A DNA stretch of 64,000 nt, from contig DASYUC010000003.1 in the NCBI GenBank assembly GCA_036001645.1, forward strand, positions 21,439 to 85,438, read 5' to 3'. Of the stretch, positions 48,315 through 64,000 are shown piece after piece. The stretch comes from Candidatus Limnocylindria bacterium. Its GTDB lineage: Bacteria > Chloroflexota > Limnocylindria > P2-11E. The notes under the pieces were generated by a model that saw nothing but the letters and a program-made list of their open reading frames with translations, had not been told where the DNA came from and did not search any database. Numbering within the stretch: position 1 is the first letter of the stretch; every line of letters starts with the position of its first letter. Made by a program: the position numbers and the translations under genes.

Positions 48315-49192
48315 CCGAAGCCATCGAGACGCATGGACTCACCAAGGACTACGGAAGCGGACGCGGCATCTTCGATCTGGACCTGAGCGTTCCGGTGGGC
48401 GAGGTCTTCGGCTTCCTTGGACCGAACGGCGCCGGGAAGACGACGACCATCCGCCTGCTCATGGGTCTCATCCACGCCACACGTGGCAACGCGCGCATCT
48501 TCGGGTTGGACTCTGACCGCGACGCTGTCGCCGTGAAGCGCAAAGTGGGCTACTGCCCCGGCGAGCTTCCACAGTTCGGCGGCTGGCGCGGATCCGAGAT
48601 CGTCGCGTACGTGGCTGGACTGCGTGGCGATGTGAAGGACGCCTCGATCATCGCGCTCGCGACGCGGCTCGACCTCGATCTCGGCCGCAAGTACCGCGAG
48701 TACTCGCACGGCAACAAGCAGAAGCTCGCGCTCGTGCTCGCGTTCATGCACCAGCCTGCGCTTGTGATCCTGGACGAGCCGACGACCGGCCTCGATCCGC
48801 TACATCAGCAGGAGTTCTACGGCATCGTCCGCGACGCCCGCACCGCGGGGGCGACGATCTTCATCTCCTCGCACGTCCTCTCGGAGGTCGAGCACGTGTG
48901 CGACCGTGTCGGCATCGTGCGCGATGGACACCTCGTGACCGTGAGCGCTCTCGAGGATCTCGTCGGCATGCGCGCCTTCCGGGTGGAGATCGACTTCGCG
49001 GACGATGTGCCGGTCGACAGGCTCCGGCGGGTCGAGGGCCTCGACCAGCTCGTCATCACCGACCATCGAGCCACCGCCCTGCTGCGCGGCACGTTCGAGC
49101 CGCTCATGTCCGCGGTCTCGGGCGCGCGCGTGACCGGCTTCACGAGCCGCGAGCCTAGCCTCGAGGAGATCTTCCTCACGTACTACCGGTGA
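48311..49192 (+). CDS. ABC transporter ATP-binding protein
   Basis: GPNGAGKTT, YSHGNKQK signature region, VILDEP. Confidence 0.9.
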   Translation: MTEAIETHGLTKDYGSGRGIFDLDLSVPVGEVFGFLGPNGAGKTTTIRLLMGLIHATRGNARIFGLDSDRDAVAVKRKVGYCPGELPQFGGWRGSEIVAYVAGLRGDVKDASIIALATRLDLDLGRKYREYSHGNKQKLALVLAFMHQPALVILDEPTTGLDPLHQQEFYGIVRDARTAGATIFISSHVLSEVEHVCDRVGIVRDGHLVTVSALEDLVGMRAFRVEIDFADDVPVDRLRRVEGLDQLVITDHRATALLRGTFEPLMSAVSGARVTGFTSREPSLEEIFLTYYR

Positions 49193-56417: not shown

Positions 56418-56547
56418 CCGTTCCCCTCCTCACCCGGTCCTCACACCGGGCTCGTTGGGTCAACGGAGGGGGCACGAAGGTGATGCGGTCGTCCTACGGT
56501 TTCGTCCGCTGGACGAACGACAAGCCGTCACAGCGCCCGGTCGGCCG

Positions 56548-57063
56548 CTATCGCATCCTCGTTGCGCCCGCGGTGGCGATCCAGGCGCGCGCTGTCGCGT
56601 GGAGCGACGCATACGCGTCCCAGGTCGACCGCGCCCATCGCCGCAGAGCTTCGCCGTATCTCACCGGATCGTCGGCGCCGACCAGCTCGCGGATCGTGGT
56701 CGCACCGTAGGTGGGTGGCAGCGCAGGCTTCGCGATCGGCGACGGCCCGCTGAGCCACCGCTGCACCGCCGCGTTCACGGACTGTGCATCGTGCTCGTCG
56801 TCGAGCCAGGCGCACAACCCGGTCAGATGCGCCGCGAACGATTTCGCCGAGCGACCGTAGCGGTCGGGATGCTGCAAGGCATAGACGTCGACGACGACCC
56901 GGTGATAGCGCGCGAAGCGCATGTCCTCGTACTCGCGCAGACCGATCGATTCGAAGAGGCGCTGACAGCCCTCCGCCCCGTCCGCGACCGCCAGGCCGCA
57001 GCTGGCGCAGACCTCGTTGGCGAGGCCCGGTCCGATCCCGCGGATGCCCGGCGCGACTTCCAC
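56548..57063 (-). CDS. hypothetical Cys-containing protein
   Basis: VAPGIRGIGPGLANEVCASCGLAVADGAEGC...; start trimmed to GTG 57063; the overlapping + ORF 56410..57150 is Arg-rich and discarded. Confidence 0.4.
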   Translation of the reverse strand: MEVAPGIRGIGPGLANEVCASCGLAVADGAEGCQRLFESIGLREYEDMRFARYHRVVVDVYALQHPDRYGRSAKSFAAHLTGLCAWLDDEHDAQSVNAAVQRWLSGPSPIAKPALPPTYGATTIRELVGADDPVRYGEALRRWARSTWDAYASLHATARAWIATAGATRMR

Positions 57064-57080
57064 GCCGGTAGTCTGACGCG

Positions 57081-57608
57081 ATGCCGGTCCAGCATCGCAG
57101 CGAACGGATCGCTGCTCCACGTCTTCGGACGATCGCGAAGCGGCTGCTGAACGCATCGACGCTGTGCGCGATATCGACGGTCTCGGCCGGCGGCCGGCCG
57201 CACGTCAACACCACCTACTTCGCGTGGAGCCCGGCGCTCGAGATCGTGTGGCTGTCGGCGCCCGAGGCGCGGCATTCGCGGAACATCGGGCGCCAGCCAT
57301 CGGTCGCGCTGGCGGTATACGACTCGACGCAGACGTGGGGAGGCTTCGATCGTGGCATCCAGCTGTTCGGTACCGCGAGCGAGTTGACCGGACGCGCGGC
57401 GCGCGACGCGGCACGACTCTACGGCAGACGGTTCAAGGCATATTCAGCCGACGAGCTGCGCGCGTACCGCTTCTACCGATTCCGTCCGCGAGCGCTGAAG
57501 CTGTTCCACGAGCGCGCGCTCGGCGGCGGCACGTTCGTGACCGCGAAGGTCTCGCGCGATGGTCGTTTGGCATGGGAGCGCACCGAGAGCTACGTGAGCT
57601 CGGCCTGA
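57081..57608 (+). CDS. pyridoxamine 5'-phosphate oxidase-family (FMN-binding split-barrel) protein
   Basis: LCAISTVSAGGRPHVNTTYFAW..EIVWLS. Confidence 0.7.
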   Translation: MPVQHRSERIAAPRLRTIAKRLLNASTLCAISTVSAGGRPHVNTTYFAWSPALEIVWLSAPEARHSRNIGRQPSVALAVYDSTQTWGGFDRGIQLFGTASELTGRAARDAARLYGRRFKAYSADELRAYRFYRFRPRALKLFHERALGGGTFVTAKVSRDGRLAWERTESYVSSA

Positions 57609-57634
57609 TACCCCGCACTAGATTGAGCGCAGCC

Positions 57635-58099
57635 ATGAGCTTCATCGCGCTCAAGTTCCTGCACATCGCTTTCATGTTCATGGGCGCCGCGTTCGCGGTC
57701 GGACCCGCTGCTCTCATCTATCTGATCGCACGATCGGCCGATGCAGCGGCGATCCGCCGGTCCTTCGCGCTCGCGGAGCGCATCTTCCAGATCAGCACCG
57801 CGAGCTACGGACTGGGCATTGTCTCGGGATTTGTCGCCGCGCTTGTCGGAAGCCTCGACCTCACCGCGTCATGGCTCATCACCGCGTACGTTCTGGTGGC
57901 GCTGCTGGGCGTCGACGGCACGCTGTTCGACCTGTGGTCGAAGGACGTCGCCCACGACTTTGCCTCGAACGACGGAGGTGACGCCACTCGTATCGACCGC
58001 CTCCGGCACGACCGGCGACCGGTCTACCTGCTGGGCGCGATGGTCGTCCTGATCGTCGCCGTCGTCTTCGTCATGGTCACCAAGCTCAGCATCTTCTAG
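57635..58099 (+). CDS. DUF2269-like membrane protein (4 TM)
   Basis: 154 aa hydrophobic, ATG 57635. Confidence 0.45.
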   Translation: MSFIALKFLHIAFMFMGAAFAVGPAALIYLIARSADAAAIRRSFALAERIFQISTASYGLGIVSGFVAALVGSLDLTASWLITAYVLVALLGVDGTLFDLWSKDVAHDFASNDGGDATRIDRLRHDRRPVYLLGAMVVLIVAVVFVMVTKLSIF

Positions 58100-58632
58100 G
58101 CGCGCGGCGCGCCGGAGACCCGCGAGAGACCGACCCACGGGTCGATCGCGGCGAGCCCGTTGCTCCCGAGGATCAGCGAGATCTCCCCGCAGTGATACGC
58201 ATCGTGCGTGACGAGTCGCATCAGGACGGACTGGCGGGTGTGGATCCGGACCTCGGTCCCGCGCGTCCGCCGGGCCTCCTGGCCCAGTGTCTCGGGCGTC
58301 CACGTCTCCAGGCAGCGCTCCACGATCTTCCAGGACGACACCAGGGCGCCGACGAGCTCGTCGGCGGATCGGGGATGCGCGAGGTCATCCTCCCAGCCGA
58401 AACCCGTCGGGTCGGCGAACGGCGTCGTCTGCGCGCCGGGCTCCTTGAACACGTGACACAGCCAAAACACGCGCGCGCCGGCGAGATGCGACGCACTCGC
58501 CCAGATCGGCCAGCTGGGCGAACCGACGGGGAGCGCGAGCTGTTCGGTGGAGAGCGGCGCGAGCGCCGTGACGAGACCGTCGTTGATAAGGCGCCACCCT
58601 TCGTAGAAGGGCGCGACGGTGGAGTTTCGCAT
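58096..58632 (-). CDS. DinB-family (DinB_2) protein
   Basis: Start trimmed to MRNSTVAPFYEGW; His-containing four-helix pattern. Confidence 0.55.
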   Translation of the reverse strand: MRNSTVAPFYEGWRLINDGLVTALAPLSTEQLALPVGSPSWPIWASASHLAGARVFWLCHVFKEPGAQTTPFADPTGFGWEDDLAHPRSADELVGALVSSWKIVERCLETWTPETLGQEARRTRGTEVRIHTRQSVLMRLVTHDAYHCGEISLILGSNGLAAIDPWVGLSRVSGAPRA

Positions 58633-58706
58633 CGGCGAAAGGCTAGCAAGTTGCGGATACAAAGCCCCTGTGGAACCGCGAAATCGCCACGCTTGTAGAT
58701 CGAGTA

Positions 58707-59186
58707 ATGAGGAGCTTCCGAATCTCATTGACCGGTGCGACGCTATCTGGATTCATGCTGGTCAGCTGTTCCGCCGTCGTCGCACCTTCCGTTCGCCCTT
58801 CTGCGACCGCAAGCGTCCATTGCGACGCAGGCACGATCCGCGACGCAGGCGAGCGCTTCTTTACGCTCTTCAACCAGCGCAAGCTCGATGAGCTCATGAC
58901 CCTGTTCCTGCCGGATGCGCGAACGTACTACGTCCGCCGCGGCGATCCGGTCACCGGTGACTTCAAGGAGAGCGGTCCCGCGGAGATCCGGCAGATGCTC
59001 GCCGACCGCATTGCCAGCGGTGAAACATTGCGGACGTCCGCGATCGTCACGGTCTCGAGCGGCGGATCGACGATCGCTACGGGGACGTTCCCCGATGGCA
59101 CCACCAGGAGACTCGATGTGAAGTACGGCTATGACTGCCGTCGCCCGGGAATTTCGCAGCTGCTGATCACGCCGATCGGTGTGTGA
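58707..59186 (+). CDS. hypothetical lipoprotein
   Basis: Signal peptide plus lipobox LVSCS; lower-GC 5' region. Confidence 0.45.
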   Translation: MRSFRISLTGATLSGFMLVSCSAVVAPSVRPSATASVHCDAGTIRDAGERFFTLFNQRKLDELMTLFLPDARTYYVRRGDPVTGDFKESGPAEIRQMLADRIASGETLRTSAIVTVSSGGSTIATGTFPDGTTRRLDVKYGYDCRRPGISQLLITPIGV

Positions 59187-59278
59187 TCTCGCGAATAGTG
59201 CGTCACTTTCCCATCCGGATGCGTCGCGCGCGCAGTTCCGCCACGCGATGGTCTGTCCGGGCACGAACGGCGTGACCA

Positions 59279-60571
59279 TCACGGCAGTATCCGGTTGAGG
59301 TCCCGAGGGAAGAGCGTCGTCTCGCGCAGGTTGCTCGCGCCGATGACCTGCTGCACCCAGCGTTCGATGCCGATCGCGAACCCACCATGGGCGGGCATGC
59401 CGTAACGGAACGCCTCGAGGTAACCGGCGAACGGCGTGGGGTCGATGTGCCTCTCGCGCATCGCCGTCTCGTAGTCCTCGTATCGATGGAGCCGCTGGCC
59501 CCCGGTGGCGAGCTCGAGGCCACGGAACAACAGATCGAAGCTGTTGGAGTACGCCGGTCGCGCGGGGTCGGGGTGCGTGTAGAACGGACGCTTCGTCATC
59601 GGAAACCCCACGACGAACAGGAAGTCGGAGTTGTATGTCCGGAGCGCCCACTCGCCCAGCCAACGCTCATGCGACGGTGCCAGATCAGGCTCGGCCAGCA
59701 CCTCGGTGCCGAACTCGCCAGCGAGCAGGTCGAGGGCCTCGGTGAAGTGCAGCTCGGGAAACTTGAGTGGCACCGCGATCGGCAGGCGGGCCCCGGCCCG
59801 CGCTACGGCGGCGTGCTCGCTCACCGCGCCGGCCATGGCGCTCGTCACCTGCCCGAGCAGTGCCATCACGTCGTGGTGGTCGGTGATGAATCCCATCTCC
59901 GCATCGAGCGAGATGTACTCGTTCAGATGGCGCGGCGTGTCGTGGGGCTCCGCACGGAAGACCGGCGCGACCTCGAACACGCGCTCGAACGCGCCGACGA
60001 GCATCTGCTTGTACAGCTGCGGGCTTTGCGCGAGATACGCCGGCTGGCCGAAGTAGTCGAGCCGGAAGCAGTTGGCGCCGCTCTCGGTCGCGGTCGCAAC
60101 GATCTTTGGCGTGAACACTTCCGTGAACCCCCGCTCGCGCAGGGCTGCGCGATACGCCGCAGCGGTGGCGTCCATGAGCTGGAACGCCGCACGCCGACGT
60201 GGGTGGCGCAGCGAGACCGCCGCATGGTCGAGGAGCGTCGGTAGCGCCGCGTCAATCGTCGGCCGGAACAGGTCGAATGGAAGACCCGCAGCCGCGGACG
60301 ACAAGACGCGCACCGTCGCCTCGCGCACCTCAACTCCGCCGGGAGCTCGCGGCTCAGCAACGGCAAGGCCACCGACCTCGATCGCCGACTCGGGCGTGAT
60401 CTGGTCGACGCCGGATGCATCGGGTACGGACGCGACCTGGCACATGCCCCAGGCGTCGCGGAGCACGAGGAAGGTGACCTGCGAGAGGAGCCGGCGGTGG
60501 TGCAGCCAGCCGCGCAGCAGCACCTGTTCACCGGCGTGTTGCGCGAGTTCGCTGGTTCGTATGCGTTCCAC
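59279..60571 (-). CDS. aspS: class IIb aminoacyl-tRNA synthetase, archaeal-type AspRS/AsnRS family (about 430 aa)
   Basis: N-terminal OB anticodon-binding domain, class II motifs 1-3 (FRAE, GGQRLHRYE, GFAIGIERW); start set to GTG 60571 with GGAGG SD 6 nt upstream; the listed ORF adds 16 codons of leader. Confidence 0.75.
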   Translation of the reverse strand: MERIRTSELAQHAGEQVLLRGWLHHRRLLSQVTFLVLRDAWGMCQVASVPDASGVDQITPESAIEVGGLAVAEPRAPGGVEVREATVRVLSSAAAGLPFDLFRPTIDAALPTLLDHAAVSLRHPRRRAAFQLMDATAAAYRAALRERGFTEVFTPKIVATATESGANCFRLDYFGQPAYLAQSPQLYKQMLVGAFERVFEVAPVFRAEPHDTPRHLNEYISLDAEMGFITDHHDVMALLGQVTSAMAGAVSEHAAVARAGARLPIAVPLKFPELHFTEALDLLAGEFGTEVLAEPDLAPSHERWLGEWALRTYNSDFLFVVGFPMTKRPFYTHPDPARPAYSNSFDLLFRGLELATGGQRLHRYEDYETAMRERHIDPTPFAGYLEAFRYGMPAHGGFAIGIERWVQQVIGASNLRETTLFPRDLNRILP

Positions 60572-60775
60572 AGGTCGCCTCCGTCTTTCATGTGGACGGG
60601 GAAACCGTGGTGCCACCACACTTCGCTCGCCCTGTGGCGAGCCTCATGAGGTCCGATAACGGGGACGACCGGCGGGTTCTAGATGGACTCGCGCCCACTC
60701 TTCCCGCACTCGAGGGTGTCCGACGCTGAGCTCCGGGCACCGCCTTGCACCATCCGGCGGCTCTCTTGGCCCTAC
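60572..60775 (-). promoter_or_regulatory. candidate T-box riboswitch leader (SD-sequestering, actinobacterial translational type) upstream of the aaRS gene
   Basis: On the minus strand: F-box CCGUUA; stem-III hairpin CUCGCC-ACAG-GGCGAG; T-box core GUGUGG-UGGCACC-ACGG-UUUCC-CCGU-CCACAU (A1 and A2 helices with 7-nt bulge); downstream hairpin UCCCCGUC/GACGGAGG covering the GGAGG SD. Confidence 0.5.
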
Positions 60776-60887
60776 ACCCAGGTCGCTCCCAGTCAGCGTG
60801 TTGCCTTGATCGTAGACCGAAACTCGGCGACGGGGTCGACGCGAGGTCTTCGCGCGCACCAAACACCGCTTGACTGGAAGAAGTGTC

Positions 60888-60963
60888 GGTAGCCCGTACC
60901 GGATTCGAACCGGTGGTCTCTGCCTTGAGAGGGCAGTGTCCTGGGCCGCTAGACGAACGGGCC
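60888..60963 (-). tRNA. tRNA-Glu (anticodon CUC)
   Basis: Manual fold: acceptor GGCCCGU/ACGGGCU (G1-U72 wobble), D-loop AGCGGCCCA, anticodon stem CUGCC/GGCAG loop CUCUCAA, T-arm ACCGG-UUCGAAU-CCGGU, discriminator A, CC encoded. Confidence 0.8.
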
Positions 60964-61080
60964 GGAGGCTTCCATTGTACCGAGCGTGACCTGTCGCGGT
61001 CCCTTCACGCGCTGAGCGATCTCGTCGCGCCGGGCGTCCGGCGCATCCCCATCCCCCTCCCGATCCGCGGTCTCTCGATC

Positions 61081-62007
61081 GTGAACGCCTATCTCGTCGA
61101 AGGGGCGCACGGCTGGAGCCTCGTCGACGTGGGCCTCCACACGGCCGAGGCCGAGCAGGCGCTCCGCGCCGGTCTGGCAGACGCGGGGATCGGCATCGAG
61201 GACGTGCGGCGCGTGTTCGTCACCCATCTTCATCCCGATCACATGGGCATGGCGGGGACGCTCGAGCGCGCGGGCGCCGAGGTGCTCATGCACACGCCGG
61301 AGATCGCCGCCGCGCGCCGCGTCTGGTCGAAGGGACACGAGGCGATCGACGCGACCTACGACTGGTTCGTGCGCCACGGGATGCCGCGGGACGTCGATGA
61401 GGGGATGCGACAGGCCTGGATCGCGATGGGCGAGCGCGTCGACGATCTCGGCCGTGTGAGCGGCGTCGAGGACGGGGCGAACGTCGATCTCGGCGGTCGC
61501 GCGACGCAGCTCCGCTGGACGCCGGGGCATACCGACTACCACGCCGTCCTCATCGACGAACGCGACGGCGTCTTGTTCGCGGGCGATCACGTGTTGCCGC
61601 GCATCACCTCGAACATCGGGCTCTATCCCTCCTCGCGCGACGATCCGCTCGGCGACTTCCTCGGCGCTCTCGCGCGGCTACGCGACCTACCGGTGAAGCG
61701 CGTGTTGCCGGCGCACGGCGATCCGTTCGAAGACCTCGCCGGCCGTGTCGACGAGCTCCTTGCGCATCACGCGGCGCGACTCGATGCGACCGTCGCGGCG
61801 ATCGGGGCGACCGAACGTGACGCGTATGCGATCGCGCGAACGCTCTTCCCGGTACTGCGCTCCCCGCACGAGGAGCGCTTCGCGCTTGCCGAGACGCTCG
61901 CGCATCTCCGGCACCTCGAACGCAAAGGTCTTGTGCGCGAGATCGAAGGATCCCCTGCGCGATGGAGCGTCACGCGTCACCGTGAGGGCAGGGGCATCGC
62001 CCCTTAA
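61081..62007 (+). CDS. MBL-fold metallo-hydrolase
   Basis: THLHPDHMG motif; start uncertain: the ORF is open back across the tRNA-Glu gene with no canonical in-frame start until GTG 61081. Confidence 0.7.
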   Translation: MNAYLVEGAHGWSLVDVGLHTAEAEQALRAGLADAGIGIEDVRRVFVTHLHPDHMGMAGTLERAGAEVLMHTPEIAAARRVWSKGHEAIDATYDWFVRHGMPRDVDEGMRQAWIAMGERVDDLGRVSGVEDGANVDLGGRATQLRWTPGHTDYHAVLIDERDGVLFAGDHVLPRITSNIGLYPSSRDDPLGDFLGALARLRDLPVKRVLPAHGDPFEDLAGRVDELLAHHAARLDATVAAIGATERDAYAIARTLFPVLRSPHEERFALAETLAHLRHLERKGLVREIEGSPARWSVTRHREGRGIAP

Positions 62008-62618
62008 GCGCCAGGACTCCGGTAGCGCTCGAGCGTCTTCGGATCGTCCCTGCCATTCGCTTTGAGGTGCCGCTCGACGACGCCGGCGCCCTGCTCCGGG
62101 AACACGTTGAGGCACATCGGGTCGAGCAGCAGGAACAGCTGCGCGTCACGCGTGCGCGGCACGACCAACGGACCCGAGAACGAATGCGCCTCGACCATGT
62201 GCGCGAGCGGCTCAGGCCCACCGAGCTCGCGCACGATCCGGCCGGCCTCGATCGCGTGGTTGTATCCGGGTATCCCGACGACCGCGCCGTCCTTCTCGCT
62301 GAACTCGATGACCTTCGCCGCGTCGTGCACGTACACGGCGGCGCGAAAGGTGTCGAGGTCGAGGTCCTGCTTCCAAAGCTCGCGGAACATCGGGACGAGC
62401 GTCTCCGAGATGCGGACCATCGCGAGCACGTGCTTCACGAGGTTGCCGTGCGTCGCGATCGGCATCGTCGGATGGAGCGGGATGCGCTCTATGTCGGTCC
62501 ACGCGGGATTCCGCTCGGAGACGTAGCGCCACATGTCGGTCGAGAGCTTGCGCAGTCGCGCGTCGCGGATGTCTTTGATGCCGGGAAAGGCTCGCAGGAC
62601 GTCGCTCTCGCTCGGCAC
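62004..62618 (-). CDS. HD-domain phosphohydrolase
   Basis: H...HD (VYVHDAAK) metal motif; start set to GTG 62618. Confidence 0.65.
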   Translation of the reverse strand: MPSESDVLRAFPGIKDIRDARLRKLSTDMWRYVSERNPAWTDIERIPLHPTMPIATHGNLVKHVLAMVRISETLVPMFRELWKQDLDLDTFRAAVYVHDAAKVIEFSEKDGAVVGIPGYNHAIEAGRIVRELGGPEPLAHMVEAHSFSGPLVVPRTRDAQLFLLLDPMCLNVFPEQGAGVVERHLKANGRDDPKTLERYRSPGA

Positions 62619-62666
62619 GACTCGAATAATCGTCGGCCCGATGGGTTGCTGCGCATTCGACGTGAA

Positions 62667-62682
62667 TAGAACGCGTGTTCTA
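62667..62682. promoter_or_regulatory. 6-4-6 inverted repeat TAGAAC-GCGT-GTTCTA in the divergent HD / HNH promoter region
   Basis: Overlaps the listed GTG start of the first HNH ORF; an internal ATG at 62696 is the more likely start. Confidence 0.3.
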
Positions 62683-63363
62683 CGCTGAGGATTCGATGAC
62701 TGCGCCGCGAAATCAACGTCCTTACAACGTCCGCTACTACGCGGCACATCGTCAGGCTGAGCTGGATCGCGTAATGAAGCGCCACGCGGCGGCTATCTCG
62801 TTCCTCCGAAATCTCCGCCGCGTCCCGTGTGAAGAGTGTGGCCAGATGTTCCCCCCTTACGTGATGGATTTCGATCATCGCGACCCCGGTAAGAAGCTCT
62901 TTGCGATCACCGGTGGTCATGCGCCACTCATTCGCGCGACAAACTGATCGCTGAGATCGAGAAGTGCGACATCGTGTGGGCGAACTGCCATGCGTTGAGG
63001 ACCTACGCCAAGCTGATGGATCGCCGACGTCGGTCAACGCCCGAGGAGTGGGCTCCCGGCAAGTCGGCGCGTATCGTTCAGAACCGTGCGCGATGGCGGG
63101 CCAACGCGGCCCTGCTGAACGAGCTCCGCGATGTCCCGTGCGAGGACTGCCGCATGAGGTTTCCGCCGTGTGTAATGCAGTTCGACCACCGTGACCCTTC
63201 GACGAAGAATTACGAAGTCACGCGGATCATCGCTCGGGCACGTTCCGTGATCCTGGCCGAGGTAGCAAAGTGCGATATCGTTTGTGTGAACTGCCATCGG
63301 AAACGGACGTACCAGCGGCGCATGGCAGAAGCAAACGGATCTTCACGTGCGGGTGTGGCGTAG
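62675..63363 (+). pseudogene. tandem-duplicated HNH-endonuclease-like gene; copy 1 disrupted by a 1-nt deletion, copy 2 intact
   Basis: Copy 1: LRRVPCEECGQMFPPYVMDFDHRDPGKK...; after a -1 frame change continues ...RDKLIAEIEKCDIVWANCHALRTY and reads without a stop into copy 2 (LRDVPCEDCRMRFPPCVMQFDHRDPSTKN...KCDIVCVNCHRKRTY). The listed ORFs 62675..62947 and 62974..63363 are the two frames. Confidence 0.55.
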
Positions 63364-63421
63364 TGGTAGCGCGCGATCCTTCCAAGATTGAGGCGCGGGT
63401 CCGATTCCCGCCACCCGCTCC
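63349..63421 (+). tRNA. tRNA-Gly (anticodon UCC)
   Basis: Manual fold: acceptor GCGGGUG/CACCCGC, D-arm GCGU-AGUGGUA-GCGC, anticodon stem CGAUC/GAUUG loop CUUCCAA, T-arm GCGGG-UCCGAUU-CCCGC, discriminator U, CC encoded; first 15 nt overlap the HNH ORF 3' end. Confidence 0.85.
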
Positions 63422-63599
63422 GACTGACACTGTCGCGTTGCGAGTTGTGCGTCGGGTTCGTGCGATCAGCCTGTCGGATTTGCGAATTGCGTGTCGGAGT
63501 ACCGGCCGAGCCTGACTTCTTGGCCTCTTATCGCACCCCGACGCCATCGCCGGCACCTCTCGTGGCGCGCGGCTCACGACCGCTACCGCTGGCCGGGCG

Positions 63600-64000
63600 T
63601 CAGCCCAACCTGGCCAGCGCAAGACCGACCGCGCCGGCCGCCGCCACCACGATCACCTCAGGGATCCGCAGTCGCCATAGGAGCAGGAGACTGACCGCGG
63701 CGATCGCCGCGGTGGGCAGATCCAGGATCGCCCGGCGCGCGAGTACGAGCACCGCCCCGGCGATCGCGCCGCTCGCGGCCGCGGTGCAACCGGCGACGAA
63801 AGCCCTGAGCTGCGGATTGTCGCGATGCCGCTTGAACCACGGCGCGGGCAGGATCGTGAGCAGGTAGACGGGGAGGAACATCCCGATCGCCGCGACCGTC
63901 GCGCCCGCGCTACCCGCAACGAGGTAGCCAATGAACGCCACGGTGATGACGACCGGACCTGGGGTGATGAGAGCGACGGCCACCGCGTCGAGGAACTGGC
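63600..64000 (-). CDS. chromate transporter (ChrA-family) C-terminal part; gene continues beyond window end
   Basis: Hydrophobic ChrA-like repeat unit (FIGYLVAGSAGA...MFLPVYL); truncated by the window. Confidence 0.5.
   Translation of the reverse strand, partial: QFLDAVAVALITPGPVVITVAFIGYLVAGSAGATVAAIGMFLPVYLLTILPAPWFKRHRDNPQLRAFVAGCTAAASGAIAGAVLVLARRAILDLPTAAIAAVSLLLLWRLRIPEVIVVAAAGAVGLALARLG

Follow-up and report, generated by a model that had tools for sequence, protein, structure and literature searches.

The stretch of DNA analysed here comprises 64,000 nucleotides (nt) of a Candidatus Limnocylindria bacterium (contig DASYUC010000003.1, positions 21,439 to 85,438) and is referred to below as the window, in whose own numbering all coordinates are given. 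It contains a tRNA-Glu(CUC) gene on the minus strand and a tRNA-Gly(UCC) gene on the plus strand, and between them a gene for a metallo-beta-lactamase (MBL)-fold hydrolase, a gene for an HD-domain protein and, directly upstream of tRNA-Gly, a cassette composed of a promoter and a gene with two HNH-type units (~62640-63335, plus strand). The cassette is without counterpart in the related locus L108, where the site is empty. The GC content of 62620-63349 is 0.593, compared with 0.684 for the window, which makes this region the lowest-GC 730-nt stretch in all 64 kb; a drop in GC at ~62620-63350 had already been noticed in an earlier sequence-only reading of this DNA. We consider it probable, at roughly two chances in three, that the cassette is a selfish HNH gene of the free-standing homing-endonuclease type, which in Limnocylindria occupies a fixed site directly before tRNA-Gly(UCC) and has here recently been inactivated. 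This reading builds on a demonstrated presence/absence polymorphism, on family membership established by sequence and predicted fold, on conserved motifs and on a lesion that is real.

The cassette promoter (62656-62686, plus strand) is composed of a -35-like hexamer TTCGAC (62656-62661), a LexA-type box GAACGCGTGTTC (62669-62680) and a -10-like hexamer TACGCT (62681-62686). Two open reading frames (ORFs) in different frames follow (62675-62947 and 62974-63363), each containing one CxxC...DHRD...KCDIVCxNCH unit. The upstream part of HNH unit 1 (62696-62947, plus strand) starts with the ATG at 62696, 9 nt past the -10-like hexamer, and ends with the TGA at 62945-62947; its N-terminus, MTAPRNQRPYNVRYY, aligns with full-length homologues. 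The remainder of unit 1, the linker and the intact unit 2, which matches phrog_3106, are encoded in the -1 frame (62932-63363, plus strand). As the sequence-only reading had stated, this frame is closed 15 nt within tRNA-Gly, by the TAG at 63361-63363, and the C-terminal tail ...NGSSRAGVA is encoded by the native tRNA leader and the tRNA itself. In the window copy, the LexA-type box, unit 2 and a hexamer TATCGT are intact and unit 2 is complete; unit 1 retains the DH, N and H residues but is frameshifted and carries Trp in place of one Cys.

A search with unit 2 yields 158 homologous proteins, mostly of 155-201 amino acids (aa) with both units. GTDB species representatives contain 150 stretches encoding relatives. 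Eighty of these 150 loci were fetched, nearly all of them metagenome-assembled genomes (MAGs) labelled Limnocylindria or Chloroflexota. Judged by these sequences, members of this unannotated family, which is found in Limnocylindria (Chloroflexota), are normally two-unit proteins of ~200 aa, and the window therefore contains no recent local duplication. The tandem duplicated HNH unit seen earlier is thus present as two units, only ~60-70% identical in DNA, but it is a family-wide arrangement and did not arise locally. The gene is an uninterrupted single ORF in ~65 of the HNH-anchored GTDB loci. Frameshifts at differing positions are found in L058, L072, L074, L075, L082 and three MFD-labelled MAGs; the gene is disrupted independently in several lineages. 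In addition, single-unit copies of ~120 aa (L131, L144 and L146) have an intact ORF that continues into the tRNA; their promoter, with its SOS box, is that of the two-unit copies, and TATCGT is present as well. The GC content of the family lies ~6 points under that of the flanks in 75 of 77 loci, and its GC content at third codon positions (GC3) is 0.73, compared with 0.84 for MBL.

The source names of family members are 'hypothetical protein' or 'cytochrome c552 subunit', the latter a misnomer that presumably goes back to the CxxCH motifs. Moreover, many members (P0003, P0005-P0012, P0023, P0060 and others) are called from an internal MDFDHRD, whereby the first CxxC is lost. The true start of the family lies 4-9 nt past the -10 hexamer and, because of this short distance, there is no space for a ribosome-binding site and the ORF is essentially leaderless. 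Correct leaderless starts and the recognition of ORFs that end within tRNA genes would both be a gain for annotation.

Neither window unit is matched by an HNH domain of Pfam or NCBIfam at E <= 0.1. The Pfam HNH model PF01844 matches 22 of 52 family members, weakly, with a best E of 3.9e-4, and apart from spurious cytochrome matches the family members have no recorded Pfam domain. The HNH assignment of the window units is based on PHROGs and on the match of folds. The 'HNH endonuclease' family phrog_3106 is matched at 1e-45 by two stretches of the family member P0004, from L003, and at 1.6e-25 by window unit 2, and tblastn finds 398 matching phage records, many of them annotated as HNH endonuclease, with a core that is 40-50% identical. 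A profile search of PDB sequences gave no match. The AlphaFold2 model of P0004 has a mean predicted local distance difference test (pLDDT) score of 94.6 and shows a strand-strand-helix arrangement in each unit. Compared with solved structures by Foldseek, it retrieves HNH proteins only (Cap5, Gme HNH, T4 endonuclease VII and the Cas9 HNH domain), at non-significant values of E = 0.3-0.9. In BFVD it matches models of two-unit giant-virus HNH endonucleases over ~200 columns, with E = 6e-13 and a template modelling (TM) score of 0.72, in a comparison of predicted with predicted structures. Single units superpose at 1.2-1.7 A on models of HNH endonucleases from phages of Streptomyces and Mycobacterium. 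In both units and throughout the family, there is little or no variation in the catalytic DH, N and H or in the four zinc-binding cysteines (CxxC...CxxC). By its PHROG matches and predicted fold the family is classed as HNH (beta-beta-alpha-metal), and a metal-dependent nuclease activity is predicted for it. A c-type cytochrome was also considered and rejected: the weak Pfam matches most likely stem from the two CANCH motifs alone, a motif that here lies in the HNH helix. On inspection, no signal-peptide-like hydrophobic stretch is seen at the N-terminus.

The box at 62669-62680 is the sole perfect GAAC-N4-GTTC in the window. In the relatives its position between the -35 and the -10 is constant: of 83 loci, 43 have the perfect box and 24 a box with a single mismatch. 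The loci, 818 kb in all, contain 53 perfect boxes, of which ~43 fall at the cassette promoter; the ten others lie in G+C-rich context, none of them seen at a gene start, and look like chance matches. The hexamers of the relatives comprise a TTGACA-like -35 and a TAnnnT -10 (TATGAT or TATACT), as in L003 with TTGACA and TATGAT, and by this comparison TTCGAC and TACGCT of the window are degraded. In Firmicutes and Actinobacteria, the motif of LexA is GAAC-N4-GTTC (PMC3323433, PMC4234289). Hence the cassette appears to be under putative LexA (SOS) control. In Mycobacterium tuberculosis, the HNH-domain REP13E12 genes are LexA-regulated.

A second promoter-like element is embedded in the coding region. 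The -10-like hexamer TATCGT (63275-63280, plus strand) lies within the unit-2 KCDIV codons (AAG TGC GAT ATC GT), ~68 nt upstream of tRNA-Gly. The Asp codon of this motif is GAT in 64 and GAC in 6 unit-2 sequences, compared with 15 GAT and 53 GAC at the homologous site of unit 1 (Fisher p = 1.5e-17), and the residue that follows is almost always Ile in unit 2 but either Ile or Val in unit 1. Together, the GAT bias and the near-fixed Ile preserve the TAnnnT sequence (TATCGT) in unit 2. TAnnnT is found in 62 of 70 unit-2 sites, 42-67 nt before the tRNA, and in 0 of 70 unit-1 sites, and the synonymous substitution rate (dS) is lower in unit 2 than in unit 1. Two loci without TATCGT (L092 and L107) have TAAAAT 11 nt before the tRNA instead. 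In L156, an unrelated ORF of ~900 nt stands in place of the gene, and what remains before tRNA-Gly is the leader and a unit-2 fragment, GTGCGATATCGTTTGTG; this retained piece of 17-20 nt includes TATCGT and lies ~75 nt before tRNA-Gly (5874). TATCGT within unit 2 probably drives tRNA-Gly, as a putative embedded promoter. In the seg and mob genes of phage T4, the promoter of the downstream gene likewise lies inside the endonuclease coding region, which favours retention (PMC2988022).

In the HNH-anchored loci, tRNA-Gly(tcc) is the next gene on the same strand in 76 of the 76 loci with sequence there. The reading frame ends within the tRNA in 63 of the 76; the end points are tRNA position 10 (37 loci) and position 15 (11 loci), and 13 frames run further into the tRNA or past it. 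An HNH-anchored scan excludes empty sites by construction, and the first view gained from it was that of a conserved, vertically inherited locus. This view was overturned because a metagenome scan anchored on MBL (80 loci, 68-91% MBL identity) found empty sites. Fifteen loci are empty, with HD or MBL followed by tRNA-Gly and no HNH gene, as against ~53 occupied ones. Here the comparison with relatives envisaged earlier takes a particular form, since the interval as a whole is not missing: tRNA-Glu, MBL and, in the window clade, HD are still there, and it is the HNH gene that is absent. In the window clade, 11 loci are empty (L088, L089, L091, L093, L096, L098, L101, L108, L109, L113 and L115), with spacers of 45-57 nt between HD and tRNA-Gly; in an HD-less clade, MBL is directly followed by tRNA-Gly in L139, L140 and L151. 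The empty spacers contain TAGAAT ~37 nt (HD clade) or ~12 nt (HD-less clade) before the tRNA, and comparison of the junction sequences revealed no gene remnant in them. The tRNA-Gly of the empty locus L108 is 100% identical to that of the window over 77 nt, and its MBL and HD genes are 85-86% identical in DNA. With blastn, window positions 62600-64000 match L108 in the tRNA only, and nothing of 62640-63335 is found there.

Occupancy varies among close relatives. On the MBL tree, empty and occupied loci are repeatedly sister tips, and the HNH gene shows 52-83% identity to that of the window among hosts with MBL 87-91% identical. Inverted modules are found in L118, L122, L125, L147 and L161, and several other copies are frameshifted. 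In L070 (6001-8384), the module of gene and tRNA-Gly is inverted in place between conserved flanks, one side shared with L006 and L007 and the other side consisting of HD, MBL and tRNA-Glu; its HNH gene is 52% identical to that of the window though its MBL is 88% identical. In addition, the tRNA-Gly(UCC) after the HNH gene belongs to one of two quite different sequence types, A (GCGGGAGTAGCTCAG...) or B (GCGGGTGTGG...), with switches between very close relatives (L003, L005, L094, L108 and others). Type A is confined to loci with the gene (24 to 0), and the empty sites are all of type B (15 of 15; Fisher p = 4.6e-4). This co-variation of the flank is only suggestive and may reflect co-conversion or co-inheritance.

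Relatives encoded on viral contigs show a similar association with tRNA genes. In 27 of 79 such relatives a tRNA gene lies within 300 nt, often 2-30 nt downstream; they are often located inside arrays of 15-34 tRNAs, and seven are beside tRNA-Gly(tcc). As a separate observation, Myxococcus phage Mx1 has a relative of the HNH unit at 48414-48635 (H7), under a feature annotated only as tRNA-Lys. Mx1 may thus contain an unannotated HNH ORF adjoining or overlapping a tRNA.

It is also possible, although we regard it as unlikely, that the gene is an old, vertically inherited and useful nuclease of the SOS regulon (for example a structure-specific repair enzyme), lost many times, and that the window captures a loss in progress. 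The gene is class-wide and intact in most species, the ratio of nonsynonymous to synonymous substitution rates (dN/dS) is 0.1-0.2, and the LexA-type box is conserved; the HNH tree splits an MBL-context clade from the others, and HNH and MBL identities correlate. A resident gene of this kind, however, does not agree well with empty and occupied loci as sister tips on the host tree, nor with empty spacers that are short, alike across lineages, scar-free and equipped with their own TAGAAT. Type A tRNA only with the gene, persistently low GC3, an HNH divergence decoupled from that of the host and the module inverted in place in L070 likewise speak for a mobile gene, and the relatives are phage free-standing HNH genes beside tRNAs.

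Several points weigh against the reading as a homing gene. The HNH tree broadly follows genomic context, in that it sets the MBL-context clade apart from the rest, and HNH and MBL identities correlate with a Pearson coefficient of 0.68, so much of the history of the gene is vertical; moreover, the low dN/dS and the conserved host-type SOS box fit a useful host gene equally. Occupancy was mapped on a single-gene (MBL) host tree from metagenome contigs and not on genome phylogenies. The Pfam HNH model is unmatched at threshold, and the Foldseek matches to solved HNH structures (E = 0.3-0.9) are non-significant. The LexA reading of the box depends on the consensus of Firmicutes and Actinobacteria and not on a lexA or recA site of Limnocylindria. 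Among viral relatives, identity reaches at most 58%, and a close phage vector was rejected on this basis. Finally, homing is assigned by analogy, and cleavage activity, target site and a route of transfer from cell to cell are all hypothetical.

With the cassette taken as a homing-type gene, which remains our preferred reading, its working can be outlined as follows. The intact form combines a sigma-70-like promoter, carrying a LexA-type box between its hexamers, with an essentially leaderless ORF of ~200 aa that places two tandem HNH units in one chain. It has no terminator, and the frame of most copies ends in the first 10-15 nt of the tRNA. Insertion puts the cassette between the tRNA and its native promoter, TAGAAT, and TATCGT in unit 2 probably takes over tRNA transcription. 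By analogy with known homing genes, the nuclease would cut the empty allele near the tRNA, and recombinational repair from the occupied allele would copy in the gene together with flanking markers. Cleavage of LexA would de-repress expression of the cassette.

A more far-reaching proposal, which we put forward tentatively and hold to be improbable, is that the essential tRNA is captured: its native promoter would be displaced, RNase P would cut off the stop codon, and the resulting non-stop mRNA would throttle the nuclease. The cassette would not be cleanly deletable because the tRNA promoter is supplied from its coding sequence, and L156 keeps only the promoter-bearing fragment. With a stop within the tRNA and maturation of the read-through transcript by RNase P, the nuclease message would lack a stop codon and be destined for tagging by transfer-messenger RNA (tmRNA). 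If this proposal were true, the family would represent a chromosomal single-chain double-HNH homing system with an undescribed link between tRNA maturation and selfish-gene control, in which the synthesis of an SOS-induced, potentially toxic two-site nuclease is limited by tRNA processing.

The remaining genes of the interval are not part of the insert. The tRNA-Glu(CUC) gene (60888-60963, minus strand; ARAGORN and Rfam) is resident and lies outside the insert, kept beside MBL in dozens of loci, empty sites included. On the complementary strand, 60974-60979 gives TACAAT, the -10-like hexamer of this tRNA gene, and the ATTGTA/ATTCTA block adjoining the tRNA is conserved among the compared loci. 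The MBL-fold hydrolase (Strvi_7410-like; 61012-62007, plus strand; Pfam Lactamase_B 7e-28, NF053820 1.7e-47) is also resident. Its ORF (60883-62007) runs open across tRNA-Glu, and no in-frame ATG, GTG or TTG is present between tRNA-Glu and the start of the domain, nor any canonical start in 60963-61081, in line with the sequence-only reading, which had found no canonical start. An in-frame CTG at 61012 is conserved in 12 of 12 compared loci, and the N-terminus of the NF053820 profile maps to residue 44 of the ORF, which is 61012; judged by these sequence matches, MBL probably starts at this CTG. The conserved DNA between this CTG and tRNA-Glu (within 60964-61030) resembles an opposite-strand tRNA-Glu promoter, with TACAAT or TAGAAT ~10 nt before the tRNA. 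The HD-domain protein (62004-62618, minus strand; 204 aa from the GTG at 62618) matches Pfam HD at 4.4e-7 and 30.6 bits (cut-off 22 bits), and its earlier recognition as an HD-domain hydrolase between the tRNAs holds. Orthologues of 84-88% identity are found in L003-L006, L058 and L070 and at empty sites, and HD is resident within the clade of the window only. The tRNA-Gly(UCC) gene (63349-63421, plus strand; ARAGORN and Rfam) is resident, of sequence type B and identical to the tRNA of the empty site L108. In three empty loci (L088, L089 and L098), ~1.76 kb of extra DNA lies between MBL and HD.

The empty sites have tRNA-Glu and MBL, and in this clade HD too, all of normal GC; MBL, HD and tRNA-Glu are resident host genes and no part of the insert. 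It is thus very unlikely that the whole interval from tRNA-Glu to tRNA-Gly, with MBL, HD and HNH, forms one island or defence locus. Both ends of the interval are indeed tRNA genes, HD is limited to one clade and the right flank of tRNA-Gly is variable among relatives. However, tRNA-Glu and MBL (with HD) occur in many species as well as at empty sites, the left flank is syntenic further out, and no integrase was found. No second copy of either tRNA-Gly end was found in the 64-kb window, nor any meaningful repeat in 58000-64000, and the att-type repeats of the tRNA-Gly ends that had been envisaged are thus not found within the window. PADLOC gave no match for P0004, P0029 or window unit 2, which leaves the suggested defence element unsupported. 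The further suggestion of a remnant of a tRNA-targeted mobile element fits the HNH segment, with its empty sites, low GC and decay, but not MBL and HD.

Two lesions mark unit 1 of the window copy. A 1-nt deletion lies between 62931 and 62932 (plus strand), where alignment with L003, L005, L006 and L058 shows the loss of the G of an ATG: the window has CTC AT- TCG CGC, L003 and L058 have CT[CG] ATG TCG CGC, and L005 and L006 have CT[GC] ATG TCA CG[TC]. The ancestral peptide at this site is ...PLMSRDKLIAEIEKCD. Because of the deletion the unit-1 ORF stops at the TGA at 62945-62947, and the frame that follows is -1 (62675 mod 3 = 2; 62974 mod 3 = 1). A single-nucleotide deletion had been deduced before and is confirmed by alignment, but position 62946, at which it had been placed, is part of the resulting TGA. 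The second lesion is a TGG (Trp) at 62977-62979 (plus strand), in place of the first Cys of the CxxCH zinc/catalytic motif of unit 1. This site is Cys (TGC or TGT) in 69 of 70 relatives, with the window as the sole TGG in the comparison, and the zinc-finger Cys reported as lost is therefore truly changed from the TGC of relatives.

An error of sequencing or assembly in an otherwise intact gene is highly improbable as the source of the frameshift. Single-base indels are common, and three frameshifted relatives come from MFD-labelled MAGs, which perhaps are long-read assemblies. In the window, however, the deleted G is outside a homopolymer (CTCAT[G]TCG), and two separate Logan assemblies from different runs (SRR11743100 and SRR11742948; L001 and L002), near-identical to the window here, carry the identical deletion and the same TGG. 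Because of these two assemblies the frameshift is no one-off assembly error, and by their sequences the lesion is real in the population of the window, L001 and L002. Programmed -1 ribosomal frameshifting that yields the full two-unit protein is scarcely credible. In its favour, the frames overlap for ~18 codons (62893-62947), both units are readable apart from the shift and the lesion recurs unchanged in three assemblies. However, no X XXY YYZ heptamer is seen by eye in 62893-62947, the downstream RNA folds no better than shuffled sequences (z = 0.36), and in the nearest relatives (L003, L005 and L006) the ORF is uninterrupted and has the ATG. The same copy also has Trp at a zinc-binding Cys and weakened promoter hexamers, and the frameshifts of other lineages are at different positions. 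The programmed +1 frameshift offered by the sequence-only reading fails on the same grounds, and the shift is -1. In the family, the window lineage included, dN/dS is 0.1-0.2 in both units. Values of 0.11-0.17 in both units, with no sign that selection on unit 1 has relaxed in the lineage of the window, show the inactivation to be recent but are no proof that function is lost. The window copy, with its deletion, its Cys-to-Trp change at a zinc ligand and its weakened promoter hexamers, is recently inactivated.

Beyond the two tRNAs, the flanking genes are a chromate transporter (63600-63983, minus strand) and an ORF for a class II aminoacyl-tRNA synthetase (aaRS; 59279-60619, Pfam tRNA-synt_2). 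A T-box leader at 60589-60805 (minus strand) is located upstream of the aaRS ORF, with 68.7 bits and E = 8e-14, below the Rfam gathering score of 93. Compared with L005, the window has ~2.6 kb extra (~56430-60880) between a conserved left-flank gene and tRNA-Glu, and this extra stretch contains a SnoaL-like ORF and the aaRS with its T-box. The right flank of the window, with the chromate transporter, does not recur in L005, L006 or L007. The non-coding stretch directly 3' of tRNA-Gly (63430-63505), which has internal direct repeats TTGCGAGTTGTGCGTCGG and TTTGCGAATTGCGTGTCGG, is conserved in occupied and empty loci (also in L005, L058 and L115).

Seen as a whole, the window would represent an ordinary event, a selfish gene shortly after its inactivation. 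The unannotated family to which the gene belongs appears to be the chromosomal counterpart of the free-standing homing endonucleases of phages. It is widespread in an abundant and largely uncultured class of soil bacteria, it presents two active sites in a single chain, and it is fused to an essential tRNA gene. As such, it may offer a natural system for following the cycle in which homing genes invade, become fixed, decay and are lost in bacterial chromosomes. It would also illustrate how such genes are integrated into host transcription, and compact site-specific nucleases might be obtained from it. This kind of element is known from phages; judged by the literature that was searched, the chromosomal, two-unit, SOS-box, tRNA-fused variant is new.

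Four groups of known systems resemble the cassette in different parts. With the SOS genes of Gram-positive bacteria (PMC3323433, PMC4234289) it shares the exact consensus palindrome between -35 and -10; in the family, this palindrome keeps its position across dozens of species. The two-unit proteins annotated as 'HNH endonuclease' in giant viruses (Medusavirus, Clandestinovirus and Marseillevirus; BFVD) have a fold that covers both units, with TM scores of 0.67-0.74. These proteins are uncharacterised, larger (277-545 aa), encoded by viruses of eukaryotes and 18-28% identical to the family. The phage families phrog_3106, phrog_2255 and phrog_4234, from Streptomyces, Mycobacterium, Klebsiella and Pseudomonas phages, are homologous per unit (E = 1e-25 to 1e-45) and have the same CxxC...DH...CxNCH core; they are mostly single-unit proteins, some with extra domains, and their names are annotations.

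A parallel in behaviour is provided by the free-standing homing genes of T-even phages, among them mobA-E, which are of the HNH type, and segB, a GIY-YIG gene located in the tRNA gene region (PMC2988022, PMC2790892). In contrast to them, the cassette is chromosomal, in a bacterial class, and has two HNH units per chain, its own LexA-box promoter and an ORF ending in a tRNA, and homing is attributed to it by analogy. Both are small nuclease genes positioned between host genes at a fixed site, present in some genomes and absent from others. Both also show co-variation of flanking markers, an embedded promoter for the downstream gene (a putative one in the cassette) and frequent defunct copies. 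The position of segB between tRNA genes is the phage counterpart to the tRNA association of the family described here.

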